IMG/VR virus record: IMGVR_UViG_2563366883_000018
DNA length: 18,760 nt
DNA from: a virus
Taxonomy: Duplodnaviria; Heunggongvirae; Uroviricota; Caudoviricetes
Direction: 5' to 3' (one strand)
Part shown: positions 2,620-14,651 of the stretch, one piece after another
Numbering within the stretch: position 1 is the first letter of the stretch
Layout of the letters: each line of letters opens with the position of its first letter
Notes under the pieces: model-generated
Database searches by the model: none
The model's input: the letters and a program-made list of their open reading frames with translations, nothing else
Told to the model about the DNA's origin: nothing
Translations under genes and position numbers: made by a program

Positions 2620-3210
2620 ATGTCTCGAATTTTTGCTTACTGTCGGATATCAACGCTGGATCAGACCACCGAAAATCAACGCCGGGAAATCGAAAGTGCA
2701 GGTTTTAAAATCAAACCTCAGCAAATAATCGAAGAACACATTAGCGGCTCAGCAGCAACCAGTGAGCGTCCTGGTTTTAACCGGTTGCTTGCTCGCCTGA
2801 AATGTGGTGATCAATTGATTGTGACAAAACTGGATCGCCTTGGTTGTAATGCAATGGATATCAGGAAAACAGTGGAACAACTGACCGAAACAGGTATCAG
2901 AGTGCATTGCTTAGCATTGGGGGGCATTGACCTGACCAGTCCAACAGGAAAAATGATGATGCAAGTAATTTCAGCAGTCGCTGAATTTGAACGAGACCTT
3001 TTACTTGAACGCACTCATTCCGGGATAGTAAGAGCCCGCGGCGCAGGGAAACGTTTTGGTCGACCACCTGTGTTAAATGAAGAACAGAAACAGGTGGTAT
3101 TCGAACGAATTAAGTCAGGTGTAAGTATAAGTGCCATTGCCCGGGAATTCAAAACCTCGCGGCAAACCATTTTAAGAGCCAAAGCAAAACTTCAGACACC
3201 TGACATATAA
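2620..3210 (+). CDS. pinQ: Serine recombinase (resolvase/invertase family, PinQ/PinR-like), 196 aa
   Basis: ORF track 2620..3210(+); N-terminal YCRISTLDQ motif with catalytic Ser10, C-terminal HTH region; strong recalled similarity to K-12 PinQ/PinR. Confidence 0.93.
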
Positions 3211-3307
3211 AAAATAATCTCGGTGTGAGATGCTTTACGTCTTCCAAGCCCCCTTCCTTGCCGTAAATGGAAAGATACATCTAATTATAGAATTTATATG
3301 TTTTACC

Positions 3308-3883
3308 CTACGGCAGTGCTGGCCATTCAATATCCTGTGCAGTTGACGTATCAACACGGTTCAGCAATACCCGATACTTTTTCCATGCTTCCAGCAACGA
3401 GATTTCTTCCTCCGTTGCAATTTCCAGATCTGCAGCATCCTGAAGCGGCGCAATATGCTCACTGGCTACCTGCATCAGGTTGTTTTTTGTTTCTTCCGCC
3501 TCCCGGATCCGGAACAGTTTTTCTGCTTCCGTATCCTTCACCCAGGCTGTGCCGTTCCACTTCTGAAACTCCCCTTCCGGGGATAACCAGGTGACATTTT
3601 CCGGTAATGGGCCAAGTTCAGAAATAAATAACGCGTCGCCGGAAGCCACGTCATAGACGGTTTTACCCCGATGATCTTCAACGAGATGCCACGATGCCTC
3701 ATCACTGTTGAAAACAGCCACGAAGCCAGCCGGAATATCTGGCGGTGCAATATAGGAACTGTTTGCTGGCAGACCTGTATGAGGCGGAATATATGCGTCA
3801 CCTTCACCAATAAATTCATTAGTTCCTGCCAGCAGATTATAAATTTTTATGGTCCGTGGTTGTTCACTCATTCTGAATGCCAT
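3308..3883 (-). CDS. tfaQ: Tail fibre assembly protein (Tfa family), 191 aa
   Basis: ORF track 3308..3883(-); ATG at 3883-3881 overlaps the stf stop by 1 nt (TAATG), indicating translational coupling; lambda Tfa-like sequence. Confidence 0.9.
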
Positions 3884-6798
3884 TATGCAAGCCTCACAAT
3901 GTAGTTAAATGCGATGTTTTTGACAGTGTTTTCCGCGTTACCAGCAGCGTTAACGGTGATGGTGTGTCCATGTGAGCCAATCGCAACAGAGTGCGTATGA
4001 GCACCAATACCGACAGTATGTGCGTGAGCACCTGCAGATGCAGCTGTGCCGCTGACACTATGAGTGTGCGCTCCTGCAGCACTTGTATTCACACTGGCCG
4101 CAGACACTACCTTATGTACTGACCCATTTTGTGACCACTGGCTGACTGCTGATGCGCCTGTGACACTATGAGTATGGTTTCCGGCACTTGCGGCTGTACC
4201 GCTCACACTGTGCGTATGCGCCCCGGTGTTATTCGTGGATTTAGTGCCGTAATCAAACGACGATGTGGTTTTCGTCCCCAAATCCGTACTGGATGCACTG
4301 GCGCTGTGGGTGTGCGATTTAATGCCGTCCTGTTCCTGAGATAATACGGCCCGACCACTGGCAGGTTTGCCCTTAATCGTCCAGCCACGCATATCAGGGA
4401 TCACGCCTGACGGATAAGCGGTTGCAAGTTTCGGGTAAGCGGATTTGTCAAAAGTCTGCCCCTGCATCAGGGCATAACCAGACGGAACGGTATCTGATGG
4501 CCACGGGATTGGTGCGCCAGGCGGATAAAACTGCTCTGATGGCGTATAGAGTGAATAAACTGTACCGTCCGTTAACCCTTCCGGCTTATTAGCAGAATAT
4601 GCTGGTGACGTATGAATAGTCACGCTGGCATTACTGGTATAATCCCATTGAATATTTACACCAGTCGCATAATTTCCGATTGCAACGTAAATATCGTAAG
4701 TATCACCAGATGTATTGACCCAGGCAAAATTTGTAAACCCTGTCGATGTGCGCTGCCATAAAGCACCAGTAATCCCCTTCGGATTACCATTACCTGCACG
4801 CAAAACAAGTTCAGATATACCTGCCTGTTGAGGTGACCCCACGTTAAATCCCGCGCCACCAATCAACGTAATTGAAACAACAGAACTCGCCTGTGGCATG
4901 GTTACCGTTGCTAATTTGAACCAACCAGCACCACCGCTGAAGGACATTGTTGTTGAGTTAAGCGTACCAATATCTTTCGGCGTCAGTGTTATATCCGCTG
5001 AAAGCGCCTTACCATTCACCTTACGGGCAGAAGGTACCCGACCATTCGCATTATCATTAGCTGCTTTCACTGCTTTCGGTGTCGCGGCAAGCGTTTCAGA
5101 TGCGCTGTTGGTTGCACTACTGAGCTGGACAATTCCTTTTTGTGCTGTCGTAGCGTCCTGAGCAGTATATTTCCCGTTAGCAAGGTCATAGGCTGCCTTT
5201 ACCGACTTTGGCGTTGCCGCCAGCATTTCAGATGTGCTGTTGGTCGCGCTGCTGAGCTGAACTATCCCTTTCTGTGCTGTCGTTGCATCCTGTGCGGTGT
5301 ATTTCCCGTTAGCCAGCTCATACGCGGCCTTAACGGCTTTTGGCGTTGCCGCCAGTGACTCGGAAGTGCTGTTAGTCGCACTGCTGAGCTGTACTATCCC
5401 CTTTTTCGTCGTGCTCGCATCCTCAAGCGCCACGGCGGATGCAATATCCTCTGCCCGTTTTGCCGCTGTCTCGGCGCGCGTTGCCGCGGATTCCGCCGTA
5501 CTTTTGCTCTGAGCTGCCGCCGTCGCACTGCCAGCTGCCTCTGTCGCCTTCGTGGATGCCGTCGTGGCGCTGCCCTTTGCTGCTGACGCCTGTCTGGTCG
5601 CCTCATCTTTTGAAGCAGACGCAGATGATGCCGATGACGCCGCCGAACTGGCGGACGATGCGGCAGCCGTTTTTGAGGATTCTGCGCTGGTTTCCGACGC
5701 TTTCGCGTTCGTCTCGGATGTCTTCGCTGCGGAAGCAGACCTCGCTGCTGCGCTGGCCTGTTCAGTGGCTTCGCCAGCCTTCGTTGTGGCTGTTGAAGCG
5801 GACGATGCGGCGCTTTCTGCCGATTTTCCGGCAGCGGTGGCACTGGCTGAGGCCTGCCCGGCACTTGTTGACGCGGCACTGGCAGACGACGCAGCCGCTG
5901 TTTTTGAGCCTGCCGCAGCTGAGGCGCTCTGTCCCGCTGCCGTCTCAGAAGACCTGGCGTTCGTCTCGGACGTTTTTGCCGCCTTCGCGGAATTTGCTGC
6001 CGCCGTTGCCGAGGAAGCTGCGCTACTGGCGCTCGAGGATGCGTTCGTTTCTGATGATTTTGCCGCCTCTTTTGAAGCCGACGCATCCCGGGCTGAGGTG
6101 GCAGCTTCTGACGCTTTCGTAGTCGCGGTGGATGCAGAAGTGGCGGCTGATTGTTGTGACGCTGCAGCATTCGTTTCTGACGTTTTCGCGGCAGCGGCAC
6201 TGGTAGCTGCCGCGCTTTTTGAGGACTCTGCAGCGGCAGCACTTTTTTCCGCTTCAGTGGCCTTTGTTGATGCCGTTCCTGCGCTGGAAGACGCTGACTG
6301 AGCCGACGAAGCGGCCTGTCCGGCTGACGTGCTGGCTGCACGTGCTGAATCTGCAGCATCAGTCGCATGGGTTGCCGCCTCACGGGCAGATGTGCCGGCA
6401 TCACTGGCTGACTTCTTCGCGGCTGCCGTGTTCTGTGCCACCACGGACGCGTTACGCGCCACCTCTTCCACCATCTGTTCAAAACGGCGCAGTGCCTCCG
6501 GACGGGCATCATCCTCCGTCATGGCACCGAGAAAATCATTCAGCGTACCGGGTTGAGAATCTTCATACACGGTGATGGTCCCGGCATGTGACGGCGGGAA
6601 TCCTTCCACCAACAGAATAACGCTGTACTGCCCGTACTCAACGTCCATGCTGTAACGCCCGGCTTCATCCGGATTTTCTGAGGCCAGCGTGTTCACCACC
6701 ACCGTGGTGCTGTTACGTTTTGCTTTCAGCTGGATTGTGCAGTTCTGTACCGGTTTTCCTGTGCCATCTTTCAGTACACCTGAAATCTTTACTGCCAT
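3883..6798 (-). CDS. stfQ: Side tail fibre protein, full length (about 971 aa from ATG at 6798): lambda-Stf-like N-terminus, long Ala/Ser/Thr-rich central region, three tandem fibre repeats, His-rich HTHS C-terminal domain
   Basis: ORF track 3883..6804(-) begins with GTG; the ATG two codons in gives [26 protein letters not shown] (lambda Stf N-terminus as recalled) and is preceded by GGGGTGA; C-terminus ...[39 protein letters not shown] matches the lambda Stf C-terminus. Confidence 0.9.
5040..5410. repeat. Three tandem copies of a repeat of about 129 bp inside stfQ, encoding ...[44 protein letters not shown] (third copy degenerate)
   Basis: Visible in the protein (three near-identical 43-aa units) and in DNA (e.g. 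5091-5210 versus 5221-5340); boundaries approximate. Confidence 0.8.
5420..6470. repeat. GC-rich low-complexity region of stfQ encoding the Ala/Ser/Thr-rich segment; source of several spurious long alternative-frame ORFs
   Basis: Protein shows reiterated [18 protein letters not shown] motifs; DNA is dominated by GCNGC triplets; boundaries approximate. Confidence 0.7.
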
Positions 6799-6814
6799 AT
6801 TCACCCCACAAAAA

Positions 6815-6862: not shown

Positions 6863-7300
6863 TCAGAACTTATAACCGACACCCACGATGAAACCGTCAG
6901 TGCGCCAGTCGCCACTGCCGGAGCCTTCATAAGCAATATCAATGGCCACGGATTCGGTCGGGTTAAACTGCACGCCAGCTCCCCACGCCAGAGACGTGTT
7001 GCTGTGGCGACCGTCATCACTTCCGGTCAGCACGTCGTGCGTTTTCCCCTTGTTGTCAGTTACGCGGAGATAATCCCCGGAGAAAGTCGACACACGGCTG
7101 TAAGCCATACCCGCCATCGCATACGCGCTGAACCATTCATTCACGCGCACAGACGGCCCCACCATCACGCTGAACCAGCGGTTACGCACGGAATCTTCAT
7201 GCCAGCGGGTATCGCTGTAACGGGTAAGCTGGCGATTCTTGTCTCCTGCATAGCTGCCGGACCCTCCATCCAGAATGACGCAATACGTGAACGCCGGGGA
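6863..7300 (-). pseudogene. lom: C-terminal fragment of a Lom/Ail/PagC-family outer-membrane beta-barrel protein; N-terminal part and signal peptide absent
   Basis: ORF track 6863..7189(-); frame stays open upstream to a stop at 7301-7303; translation ...[22 protein letters not shown]...AYEGSGSGDWRTDGFIVGVGYKF matches lambda Lom from about residue 85 to its C-terminal F. Confidence 0.75.
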
Positions 7301-8259
7301 TCACCATAACGACTGCCATCTGCATTGATGGATTCACCATCCCGTAACCAGACCCCACGTCCGTTCAGCTCGCGTTTTTGTTCAGGCAAAATCCGTCCTG
7401 AACAGGAAGGACACTGAATATAAGCCGCCTCACTTGCCAGCACAGGATCGGCAATATCACGGAAACCAGCAACCACATCGCCGCAGGGCTGAAAATACTC
7501 ACCACAGTGTGGACAGGGCCAGTACCAGCGACGGCGATCGCCACGGTTATAGAGCGACAGGATCCCCGTGGTTGGTGGAGCCTCATGCGGTGAAGTCCGT
7601 CGCCATTTCACATCCTTCACATCCCTGCCGGGGGAACTCTCCACCAGCGTCATACCACTGGACATAAATGTGGTGGTACGTTTTGAGGCAAGAGAGAAGG
7701 CATCCCCCTCACCATCAATATCTTCCGGAAAACGGTCATAATCCGTCAGCGCCACGCATTTATAATCTGATGAAGACATGATATTGACTGACGGCCAGCC
7801 GATTTTCAGGTAGTTGCCAGCAAGGAATGTTCTGTCATAAACGTTGTTGTCATTTTTGTTCGGACTCAGGCGACTGACCACTTCCGGGCTGACGCGAAAC
7901 GTTCTGGCGAGTCGTTTTTTGGAGTGTTCGCGGGCTTTTTCCTCCGTCATCTGAATGATCAGCATATCAGCAGGATCGCAAATCACGTTGTAAATCACCC
8001 AGCCGTCAATCAGGCCGATAGTCTTGCCGGTTCGTGCCGGGCCAACAAATATCACTGCGTCGTATTCACGCGAGGCCAGGCAGTTCATAGGCTCAATAAC
8101 ATACGGTGCCACCAGCGGATCCCACGGGACTGAGTTCCCTGCCCCCATAGGCACCCGCATATACTGAGCAACGGCATCAGCAACCCGCATTCGTCTCGGT
8201 GCGCGAAGGATATAACCTGAATCGGTTCGTGCTGCCTTTGCGGTTTCCTGATTCAGCAT
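7165..8259 (-). pseudogene. N-terminal fragment of a GpA-family large terminase subunit; the last ~40 codons of the ORF are out-of-frame lom sequence
   Basis: ORF track 7165..8259(-), 364 aa; P-loop GPARTGKT and CPHCGE zinc-finger-like motif as in lambda gpA; lambda gpA is about 641 aa, so the C-terminal half is missing; ATG at 8259 overlaps the nohA stop (TAATG). Confidence 0.8.
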
Positions 8260-8753
8260 TACTCCTCCTGCTGTAATTCCTCCTCATCATCCGCACCTGC
8301 TTCAGTCACCCGCAGGGCTATCTGATCGCGCAGATCATCAATAATGGACTGAACACGGCTCACAGCGGCAGGCTGCAGACCGCAGTCACGTTCAAGAATA
8401 TCCGGTAATGTCTCCAGCACCTGCACGACCGCTTTTGCCCAGATGGCAAACTCCCGTCTGACATCACTGGCCGGAATGAGTTGTGCCGTTTCCTGTTCGA
8501 ACTTAAGACGCTCACGTTCAGACTGATACCAGGCTTTGCGCTCATGCGCGTCCATTTCGCCTTCTGCAACCGGCGGTGGTAATGCCAGAAATGCCGACAC
8601 AATATCAACCACCCGATAAAGCTTGAGGTTGCTTTCATGCCCCCCTGCAACGGGTAGATTTTGCAGCCTTGCCGCAGCAGTCTGGCGATGTACACCTGAC
8701 AATGCCGCCAGTTGACTGATATTCAGCGTCAGATTTTTTAACTCTCGATCCAT
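8259..8753 (-). CDS. nohA: Terminase small subunit (Nu1-like), 164 aa, with N-terminal HTH
   Basis: ORF track 8259..8753(-); N-terminal HTH-like [24 protein letters not shown], acidic C-terminus; position immediately downstream of a cos-like site and upstream of the large terminase; the gene symbol rests on position and on a recalled NohA/NohQ identity. Confidence 0.8.
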
Positions 8754-8899
8754 ACCCGCTCCAGAATGTTTTAAACATGTATCTTGCGAACAACTTTAGG
8801 CAAACGGTGTTAGTGATGAACAAAAAACAATCAGAATCGACACCATAAAAATAAAACCACTGTAATATCAATCAATTACAGTAGTGGTGATGACGAATA

Positions 8900-8968
8900 A
8901 AATTTCAAAAACTAGCCTTTTTCCGCGACGCTCCCGCCCCGTGGCAGGGGCCCCCACCGGGAGGACCC
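8900..8968 (-). other. cos site of the lambdoid prophage (cosQ-cosN-like segment, with cosB presumed between it and nohA)
   Basis: Minus strand reads GGGTCCTCCCGGTG-15 nt-GGGGCGGGAGCGTCGCGG...TTTTTGAAATTTTATTCGTCAT, paralleling the lambda cos junction GGGTCCTTTCCGGTG-15 nt-GGGCGGCGACCTCGCGGG...TGAAAATTTTCC...TTCGTCAT as I recall it. Confidence 0.5.
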
Positions 8969-8992
8969 GACAGCCTGACAGCCTGACAGCCG
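8969..8992. repeat. Three tandem copies of an 8-bp unit GACAGCCT (last copy GACAGCCG) next to the cos-like element
   Basis: Read directly from sequence. Confidence 0.8.
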
Positions 8993-9127
8993 TGATGAGC
9001 ATCTGATACAGCGCTTTACATAATGGCATAGGAATAATTCAGAAGGACATCACAGCATGCCCACACAAATTAGTGTGAGTGTCCTGTTTCTTCCTACGCA
9101 CAGGACTGACGAGCATGAGGGGAAAAT

Positions 9128-10981: not shown

Positions 10982-11252
10982 GATGTTACCGTAGTATGTG
11001 AGTATCCATCGAATAGACACCAAGCAAAAAAGCTCCCGAAGGAGCCTTCATTTTCACTTTTTTAAATCCAACGACAGACGGCTGGCATTTAAGTATTGTG
11101 AAATATTATCAAATGTAATCATCATTGATTTACAAAAGATACATTTTGCCCCGAAAGGATTCATGTCAGAAACATCAAAAGATGATGTTCTATACTGGGA
11201 ACCATGACAACACGGGCATCTAAAGTGAATATGGTTTGTAATATTGTCTACC

Positions 11253-11465
11253 TCAAAGCGCCACTACATGAACAGCGGCAGGACCTTTAGGTCCGTTCTC
11301 AATACCAAATTCAACTTCCTGATTCTCAGTTAATGTTTTGAAATCGTTGCTCTGAATTGCTGAGAAATGGACAAACACATCTTTGCTGCCATCTTTCGGC
11401 GTGATGAAACCAAAACCTTTTTCAGGGTTAAACCATTTCACTAAACCAGTCATTTTGTTAGACAT
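11253..11465 (-). CDS. cspI: CspA-family cold-shock protein, 70 aa
   Basis: ORF track 11253..11465(-); [13 protein letters not shown]...KGFGFI...FVHFSA cold-shock domain with RNP1/RNP2 motifs; followed on the minus strand by a long AT-rich leader (11466 to about 11650). Confidence 0.93.
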
Positions 11466-11826
11466 AATTATTACCTTTTGAAGAAATTAGCCCTTGGGCA
11501 GAATGGTCCGAAAAAAATATCAGAGAGAAAAACCAACAAGGAAATCTCAAGAGGTACAAATAATAAAATTATAACAATGACTGCTTCAGATAAATTTGTA
11601 ACAAACCAGAACACCATTAACGCATGATTAACCACCCATAGCAAGGATTACTTTTGTAAAGAAAAACACAGCAATGAAAGAATAGCTTTATTTATTAATA
11701 AAACGTGTCATTCTGATTAAGACCTTTTATCTTACCCTTAAGATTTCAGGAATTTTGGCTCATGGAAGAGTCCTTTTTATTCAAATTTTACATTCCGCGA
11801 TGTAAATGTTCCGATTTAATATTACC

Positions 11827-13853: not shown

Positions 13854-14135
13854 TGAGATTGTGGTGCTTTTTGTGGGAGTCATCCACTTACGCACTTTGT
13901 TTTGCCATGCCAGCAGTTAGCTTCTGCTGTAAAACTATTCAGGCAGCAAACCTGCACTTCACCACAATGGTTAGCATACTTTTCCTGATTAAGATTTTGC
14001 CAAATATGCTAGCCATTGTTTCATGTATTGGACCTCCTTACTTTTTATTAAAGAGATCCAATATTCACTACTCTGTCCGTATCTCTACTCAGGCATCAGC
14101 CTTCTTCGTTATCGTATACAGACGAGCGATGAATT

Positions 14136-14351
14136 TTAATCAGTAATGATGACATTTGCTGCTGCAGGACCTTTAGCACCACTCTCTATAGAGAAGGTAA
14201 CCTTTTGACCTTCAAATAAGGTTCGATAATTATCATTCTGAATCGCAGAAAAATGCACAAACACATCTTTACTACCATCAACAGGAGAAATAAAGCCGAA
14301 ACCTTTATCAGCGTTAAACCATTTTACTAAACCAGTCATTTTATTTGACAT
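14136..14351 (-). CDS. cspB: CspA-family cold-shock protein, 71 aa
   Basis: ORF track 14136..14351(-); [21 protein letters not shown]... cold-shock domain. Confidence 0.93.
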
Positions 14352-14651
14352 TCTACATTCCTTAACTTGAGCCTTTCGGCATAAATGGTTTGCATAACAG
14401 AAACGACTTCGTACTTAATTGGAGAGACTCAAAGAAGGAATAAGTGAATAACACCTGAAATGAGAACTGCTTTAGTAAACTACTTCGTATATCGTCTGTT
14501 CTTCAAACCGACGCAATCATTAACGCATAGTTGAACATATGAAGCAATGTTTATTTTAGACATCCAGCCATCTTCAACCCCATCAAAAAACTATAGCTTT
14601 CTTCAGGAACGTGTGTATAGTGCGCCAAGTTATCAGTATTAAGGAATTTTT

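Follow-up and report, generated by a model that had tools for sequence, protein, structure and literature searches.

The cos junction and its relatives

The DNA analyzed here, hereafter the window, is the whole 18,760-nucleotide stretch of IMG/VR virus record IMGVR_UViG_2563366883_000018, a Qin-like cryptic prophage in ydfJ. The element under study is a candidate cohesive-end packaging site (cos) on the minus strand. It is located 187 bp upstream of the gene for an intact small terminase subunit (TerS), as counted from the first base of the predicted cohesive end (bp 1 in the site numbering used below) to the TerS start. An earlier note on this DNA had described an apparently intact lambda-type cos junction at 8900-8992, upstream of a small terminase gene in a prophage lacking head genes. 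All of these points were confirmed, with corrections to several details.

The minus strand from 8991 to 8890 reads GGCTGTCAGGCTGTCAGGCTGTC-GGGTCCTCCCGGTG-GGGGCCCCTGCCACG-GGGCGGGAGCGT-CGCGG-AAAAAGGCTAGTTTTTGAAATTTTATTCGTCAT. The skeleton GGGTCCT-N22-GGGCGG-N6-CGCGG matched the window once, at 8968-8923 on the minus strand, and was found in none of 200 dinucleotide-preserving shuffles even with two mismatches tolerated, which rules out a chance resemblance to cos. Its first part, GGGTCCT (8962-8968, minus strand), is identical to lambda cosQ (lambda bp 48473-48479), the packaging-termination signal (PMC4669245), and starts 29 nt upstream of the predicted nick. The cosN sequence, CG/GGGCGGGAGCGT/CG, is located at 8926-8941 on the minus strand in the context CACG/GGGCGGGAGCGT/CGCGG. 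Nicks are predicted at 8940/8939 on the minus strand and at 8928/8927 on the plus strand, and would leave a 12-nt 5' cohesive end, GGGCGGGAGCGT (8939-8928, minus strand). The first element of the junction, taken to be 15 nt in the earlier note, is GGGTCCTCCCGGTG, which has 14 nt and is one shorter than the 15-nt GGGTCCTTTCCGGTG of lambda.

Between cosN and the candidate cosB lies CGGAAAAAGGCTAGTTTTTGAAATTTT (bp 15-41; 8899-8925, minus strand), at a position equivalent to the cosN-R3 interval of lambda. The earlier note had placed a TGAAA-TTTT motif and a further element in this part of the junction, as in lambda. The motif, TGAAATTTT at 8907-8899 (bp 33-41), is indeed in the same place as TGAAAATTTT of lambda (bp 32-41). 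The further element, TTCGTCAT, was found at 8897-8890 (bp 43-50), just outside 8900-8992, and its position is not that of the lambda copy, which is at bp 67-74. The block CGCGGRAAWNGGCTRGTTTTT is common to several cosB types, including those of Gifsy-2, Fels-1, mEp213, and Chris1. DNA secondary structure across cosQ-cosN was no better than in shuffles (z = +0.5), and an Rfam scan of the whole window detected no known RNA family within 8800-9000. A perfect 8-bp GC palindrome, GGGGCCCC, was observed in the spacer between cosQ and cosN (8947-8954, minus strand) and also in strain GMF065 and phage Tritos. Most relatives have GGGTGGCC there, and no part of the site varies more than this spacer.

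The corresponding junction of lambda reads GGGTCCTTTCCGGTGATCCGACAGGTTACG/GGGCGGCGACCT/CGCGG. Of the 12 cohesive-end positions, GGGCGGGAGCGT and GGGCGGCGACCT differ at four (bp 7, 8, 9, and 11), and the distance from the start of cosQ to the nick is 29 nt here versus 30 nt in lambda. The GGGCGG left half and both flanking CG pairs are the same. Because of the four differences, an alignment to lambda alone would make the site look disrupted. However, all of them fall in the right half (bp 7-12), where cosN differences are frequent in lambda-like phages: N15 differs at bp 9 and 12, and Gifsy-1 at bp 8, 9, and 11. Feiss and colleagues further report that a C11G change is without phenotype in lambda and that conservation extends to cosQ and to the CG pairs beside the nicks (PMC4669245). 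The appropriate reference is the cdtI/Tritos/mEp460 group, to which the cohesive end is identical.

The records of phages cdtI and Tritos start with GGGCGGGAGCGTCGCGG (cohesive end GGGCGGGAGCGT) and end with ...CTGCCACG (...CCACG), which coincides with the nicks predicted in the window. Tritos is an LF82 prophage that forms plaques and virions (PMC9928086). The cosQ-cosN region of phi458, vB_EcoS-569R4 (569R4), mEp460, and PhiR40_1 is also as in the window, with G at bp 12 in mEp460. Furthermore, 120 arbitrary IMG/VR contigs matching ACGGGGCGG-N6-CGCGG, with 126 sites, were surveyed. The GGGCGGGAGCGT end was the second commonest after that of lambda (12 versus 51 of the 126 sites), and cosQ was located at -29 in all 12 contigs with this end.

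The window was aligned with 16 relatives sharing its cosB, including phi458, 569R4, and mEp460 (17 distinct sequences in total). Across the alignment, cosQ, bp 1-10 of cosN, bp 13-35, CGTCATCACCAC (bp 45-56), and GGTGTCGAT were unchanged, and cosQ was kept even where the DNA upstream was unrelated. The variable parts were the cosQ-cosN spacer, bp 11-12 of the cohesive end, the arms of a hairpin described below, and mostly the N positions of the consensus for integration host factor (IHF). From cosQ through the R1-like site, the window has the consensus base at every conserved position. The only window-specific substitution in the interval from cos to terS is a G-to-A change (GATGCATG to GATACATG) at 8780 (minus-strand bp 160). 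It is absent from the 16 relatives and common to the clone of the window, and it falls 27 nt before the TerS start codon, clear of the candidate binding sites. These sequence comparisons support the view that the cos is undamaged relative to those of the plaque-forming or induced phages cdtI, Tritos, phi458, 569R4, and mEp460.

Several deposited phage genomes are odd exactly at cos. In MF807953 (Ayreon), ~150 bp annotated as "late gene regulator" replaces the cosN core; in LR597641 (mEp460_ev081), cosB is tandemly duplicated; ON416862 (ASU11) has no cosN between cosQ and the R3-like block; and LR595868 (mEp460_4F5) is missing 3 nt of cosN. Artefacts of assembly at the genome ends are the probable cause, but the variants could be real.

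Directly abutting cosQ is an octamer repeat at 8969-8991, GGCTGTCA on the minus strand and GACAGCCT on the plus strand. The three tandem copies seen beside cos in the earlier note are thus a genuine abutting repeat, with the correction that there are 2.9 copies (Tandem Repeats Finder: period 8, 100% matches) and the third ends in G, not T. Three copies were found in the window, GMF065, and Tritos, and two in most relatives. A role as a cos element was ruled out, as phi458 and the relatives L081 and L129 have unrelated sequence there and yet the same cos; the octamer belongs to the upstream module and varies in copy number by slippage. These three relatives are unrelated to the window immediately upstream of cosQ, and Tritos, cdtI, and PhiR40_1 diverge from it after bp 34. 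With module junctions at cosQ and at bp 34/35, the cosQ-cosN segment behaves as a common linker between exchangeable modules. Cutting at cos stimulates recombination with defective prophages (PMC3945230), and the mosaic junctions fit such a process.

Candidate cosB, terminase genes, and the prophage

The functional site extends beyond 8900-8992, to ~8813, if the candidate cosB is included. On the side of cosN, a candidate R3-like TerS-binding site, CGTCATCACCAC, is located at bp 45-56 (8884-8895, minus strand) and was kept in all 17 sequences; analogous CATCATCATC blocks occupy the R3-like position in other phages with a TerS of the DUF1441 family. For comparison, R3 is at bp 50-65 in lambda and at bp 48-59 in N15 (PMC9026076, PMC4669245). 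An exact match to the IHF consensus, WATCAANNNNTTR (TATCAATCAATTA), follows at bp 62-74 (8866-8878, plus strand), where it may serve as an I1-like bend site between R3 and R2. This consensus matched the window twice, versus 1.19 matches expected over 18.7 kb. Polymorphisms of the IHF site in relatives are mostly at NNNN, and the ATTG-TATT core was changed once (L084). In 8 of 10 cosB types of DUF1441-TerS phages, the same strand carries an IHF match that has at most one mismatch and begins at bp 61-65.

Beyond the IHF site, a candidate R2-like site in inverted orientation, GGTGTCGATT, was found at bp 96-105 (8835-8844, minus strand), with GGTGTCGAT present in all 17 sequences. Other family members have GATGTCGAA or GATGATGA at this place, inverted relative to their R1 sequences TTCGACATC or TTCATCATC. 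The candidate R1-like site, TTGTTCATCAC, is at bp 117-127 (8813-8823, minus strand) and was kept in 14 of the 17 sequences; the exceptions are mEp460_ev081 (L018), in which the cosB duplication has its junction here, and L084 and L129, which carry substitutions. The 7-mer TCATCAC is common to the R1-like and R3-like blocks. An R3-I1-R2-R1 "complex cosB" has been described by Feiss for many lambda-like phages, and the candidate cosB of the window appears to mirror this order.

The TerS gene (8259-8753, minus strand) encodes an intact protein of 164 aa that matches DUF1441 (Pfam PF07278, E = 2.7e-41). Ayreon, 569R4, and 813R6 have an annotated small terminase that is 100% identical to it; the identity is 99.4% for the TerS of mEp460, 47% for that of Gifsy-2, and 42% for those of Tritos and cdtI. 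The earlier note had taken this gene for nohA, a homolog of lambda Nu1. This assignment was rejected: BLASTP against lambda Nu1 gave E = 20, and DUF1441 was the only Pfam match. No match was found among PDB sequences, and a single-sequence AlphaFold model (pLDDT 66) was too weak for fold comparison. The nohA label is thereby corrected; in this very common E. coli prophage family, the small terminase is still labelled only "DUF1441".

The next gene encodes a truncated large terminase subunit (TerL') of 364 aa (7165-8259, minus strand), which runs on into lom and has GpA_ATPase as its only Pfam match (3.7e-72). Its sequence follows residues 1-336 of the mEp460_4F5 TerL (700 aa) at 99% identity and diverges after ~336. 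The ATPase part was kept, and the nuclease and portal-binding parts were deleted. On the far side of the deletion, the last 108 aa of Lom are encoded at 6863-7189 on the minus strand (Pfam Ail_Lom, profile positions 92-199 of 199), with Lom homology beginning at ~7256. Approximately 17 kb was deleted from mid-TerL to mid-lom, which removed the head and tail genes. At this place, strain GMF065, which is 99.9% identical to the window across cos, keeps the 3' half of TerL, the portal gene (interrupted by an insertion sequence), a protease-capsid fusion, and tail genes. No complete TerL, portal, or capsid gene was found in the window; lom' and then stf come directly after TerL'. As TerL is without its nuclease and portal half and there are no heads, the prophage cannot cut or package itself.

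Because the TerS is not Nu1-like and the TerL is only 23% identical to lambda gpA, the sequences place this prophage in a distinct lineage of lambda-like packaging modules, with heads of the Gifsy-2 type (PMC12315714), in which the cosQ and left cosN of lambda are kept.

The window is 100% identical over 18,259 nt to scaffold KB732454.1 (GCA_000351025.1). On the minus strand, the order before cos is the Q antiterminator, essD, ydfR, rrrQ, rzpQ (lysis), cspI, gnsB, and an open reading frame (ORF) similar to ybcW; after cos come the DUF1441 TerS, TerL', Lom', a 973-aa side tail fibre, tfa, pinQ, ydfK, and ydfJ. Within tfa, a full-length Rfam match to RF02111 "IS009" (220.9 bits) was observed at 3342-3540 on the minus strand. 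Two cspA thermoregulator 5' untranslated regions (RF01766) were located at 11226-11610 and 14120-14512 on the minus strand, upstream of cspI and cspB. The pinQ invertase adjoins the full-length side tail fibre gene and tfa (2620-6804); a PinQ-invertible segment of such an arrangement was recently reported to be linked to blocking of phage T2 adsorption (PMC12529663).

Use of the site and alternative explanations

Taken together, we consider it probable, at about 0.85, that the Qin-like prophage carries a complete cos (cosQ, cosN, and cosB) that stems from a lambda-like phage of the cdtI/mEp460/Tritos/Gifsy type, competent only in trans. Some points weigh against this interpretation. The ends of the cdtI and Tritos records may have been set by analogy to lambda, and the related cos of mEp213 was termed "putative" (PMC12315714). 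The R3-, R2-, and R1-like blocks resemble one another imperfectly, at 6-8 of 11 positions, and their assignments were made from position and conservation only. The identity of cos in six further loci with the same deletion, taken from at least 24 such contigs, is uninformative on selection, because these loci are 99.84-100% identical to the window overall. Finally, complete packaging in the manner of lambda would need a longer element than this remnant and more than one chromosomal cos.

In an intact phage, by analogy with lambda, the DUF1441 TerS would bind cosB at its R-like repeats, between which IHF would bend the DNA, and TerL so placed would nick cosN 12 bp apart to give the 5' cohesive end GGGCGGGAGCGT. 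Packaging would proceed from cosN into the TerS gene, toward lower window coordinates, and would be terminated by cosQ and cosN at the next cos. In the window, the site could be cut only in trans, as a substrate for the terminase of a phage of the same TerS/cosB type, either co-resident or superinfecting. The expected outcomes would be a double-strand break stimulating recombination with that phage, and one-ended packaging through the ~9 kb remnant and then into ydfJ, ydfI, and beyond, not into the early genes of the prophage. With no downstream cos, filling would be one-ended, of the "docL" type known from lambda, and mature particles would not be made. Complete transducing particles would require a second cos downstream, or excision and multimerisation. 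The suggestion in the earlier note that such a prophage could be packaged in trans is therefore plausible, and it has a precedent (PMC2669165); what has to be added is that the single cos would lead into ydfJ/ydfI and that termination would need a second cos.

Whether the site is ever used in this way is a separate matter. It may be an inert fossil that looks intact, is never used, and has had too little time to decay since the deletion, an explanation to which we give somewhat less than even odds. Over 18 kb, the window shows 99.84-100% identity to other carriers of the TerL'::lom' deletion, and over 701 bp it shows 99.9% identity to a prophage in which the head genes persist; given this near-identity to relatives, non-functional spacers are preserved as well as the cos subsites. 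Nor was preferential retention of cos and TerS supported. The cos-TerS module was found in 1362 of 5426 complete E. coli genomes and is no commoner than the 3' half of TerL, which was found in 1901. The exact TerL(1-336)::Lom fusion protein was present in 132 blocks of a public collection, including gut metagenomes, and the deletion marks a widespread E. coli clone. Deletion end points differ between strains (ZH177 and L047), as random decay predicts. The intactness of cos most likely reflects a recent deletion rather than selection. However, inertness concerns the use of the site, not its identity, and is compatible with a competent substrate. With this module in ~25% of complete E. coli genomes, cognate helpers should be common and an encounter with a matching terminase is likely. 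The cos region of DLP12, moreover, is engaged during lambda infection (PMC3945230).

The 12-kb viral contig L047 (IMGVR_UViG_2574179916_000005) carries three cosQ-cosN sites in the same orientation, with bp 1 at 95, 8230, and 10766. A different cosB type follows each of them; after the first come the same TerS and a TerL cut short at 331 aa. The three sites look like stacked cos-terS remnants.

A second explanation would place the main role of 8885-8846 in RNA, as a hairpin or intrinsic terminator that controls late read-through into the terminase genes, and not in IHF/TerS binding. An 11-bp imperfect inverted repeat surrounds the IHF site (8856-8885, minus strand) and is followed by TTTTATTTTT. 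This 11-pair stem with a T-run is terminator-like, and its RNA fold has an energy of -12.7 kcal/mol (z = -3.6). By contrast, no compensatory changes were found among the relatives, and pairing was no better than in shuffles (127/500). The stem has only three G-C pairs and is broken in 569R4 and L081, and the hairpin is not kept in other cosB types, although their IHF-like core is in the same place. A terminator as the main role of this segment is accordingly improbable.

There is also a slim chance that the retained cos, TerS, and ATPase-only TerL serve as a decoy or poison of a terminase of the same cosB type, or that the site is a launch point that mobilises ydfJ-ydfI. The former would amount to packaging-level exclusion of incoming phages and the latter to a cos-phage analogue of lateral transduction. 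A dedicated satellite or interference module, in which cos, TerS, and TerL' hijack the terminase of a helper or poison an incoming one of the same type, is very unlikely. It is true that TerS is intact, that TerL' comprises the N-terminal and ATPase part without nuclease or portal docking, and that the TerL'::lom' fusion ORF is open in many assemblies. Phage-inducible chromosomal islands (PICIs) that bear cos and redirect the terminase of a helper are also known (PMC6739421, PMC9026076). However, the window has no PICI hallmarks. The pattern of cos-type PICIs (EcCI), a small island that has int, alpA, and replication genes of its own and rpp after cos, was not found there; an ordinary phage TerS, the one identical to that of Ayreon, takes the place of Rpp. 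The surroundings are those of a lambdoid late region in decay at the Qin site, the differing deletion end points are as expected for random decay, and an open ORF carries no meaning in a carrier clone this young. Finally, a degraded lambda cos with a non-functional cosN, to which the four cohesive-end differences and the 29-nt spacing might point, is hardly credible and was ruled out: the same cosN and spacing occur in plaque-forming or induced phages (cdtI, Tritos, phi458, 569R4, and PhiR40_1) and in the 12 IMG/VR contigs, right-half variants are natural in N15 and Gifsy-1, and a TerL this far from gpA belongs to a distinct lineage rather than to a decayed lambda.

The cos sites of cryptic prophages, helper packaging via a common cos, and variation within cosN's right half have already been described. 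What the reading as a complete cos competent in trans adds is base-level coordinates of cosQ, cosN, and a probable cosB for a prophage family found in about a quarter of complete E. coli genomes. At this site, the terminase of a cognate phage could cut the chromosome, give rise to recombination, or begin to package host DNA in a one-ended manner.

Comparison with known cos systems

The cos of the window and that of lambda are alike in the identical GGGTCCT, the 12-nt length of the predicted overhang, the distance of ~190 bp from bp 1 to the TerS start (187 bp here and 191 bp in lambda), and the TGAAA(A)TTTT motif at the same position. In both, an IHF consensus lies between a block at the R3 position and an inverted block, and the TerL is of the gpA family. 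They differ in bp 7, 8, 9, and 11 of the cohesive end and in the spacing from cosQ to the nick. The candidate cosB repeats of the window are unrelated to the CGTTTCC repeats of lambda and closer together. The DUF1441 TerS, the distant TerL, and a Gifsy-2-type head module with a protease-capsid fusion further set this type apart from lambda.

In phi458, 569R4, and mEp460, cosB is as in the window and the TerS is 99-100% identical. In cdtI and Tritos (LF82 prophage 3), cosQ, spacing, and cosN are shared, and the records were opened exactly at GGGCGGGAGCGT. From bp 35, by contrast, these two phages have another cosB and the 42%-identical TerS. Unlike the window, all five phages have a full TerL and head and tail genes.

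The K-12 prophages DLP12 (nohD) and Qin (nohA) resemble the window in that Q, the lysis genes, cos, and TerS were kept and the downstream morphogenetic genes were deleted. Qin of K-12 also occupies the same site, ydfJ, and has the same flanking genes (cspI, gnsB, rzpQ, pinQ, and stf/tfa). Its nohA presumably encodes a Nu1-type TerS. The cos and nu1 of DLP12 function with lambda, and this cos is a recombination hotspot (PMC3945230). DLP12 differs in having a Nu1-type TerS and a lambda-like cos region (98% identity; PMC3945230), whereas the window has a DUF1441 TerS with its cosB and a GAGCGT cohesive end. As for the use of such a site in trans, Sp4 of O157 Sakai is a prophage without an intact terminase that, like the window, keeps cos. 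It was found packaged, which the authors credited to the terminase of Sp14 acting via a nearly identical cos (PMC2669165). Sp4 excises and is amplified.

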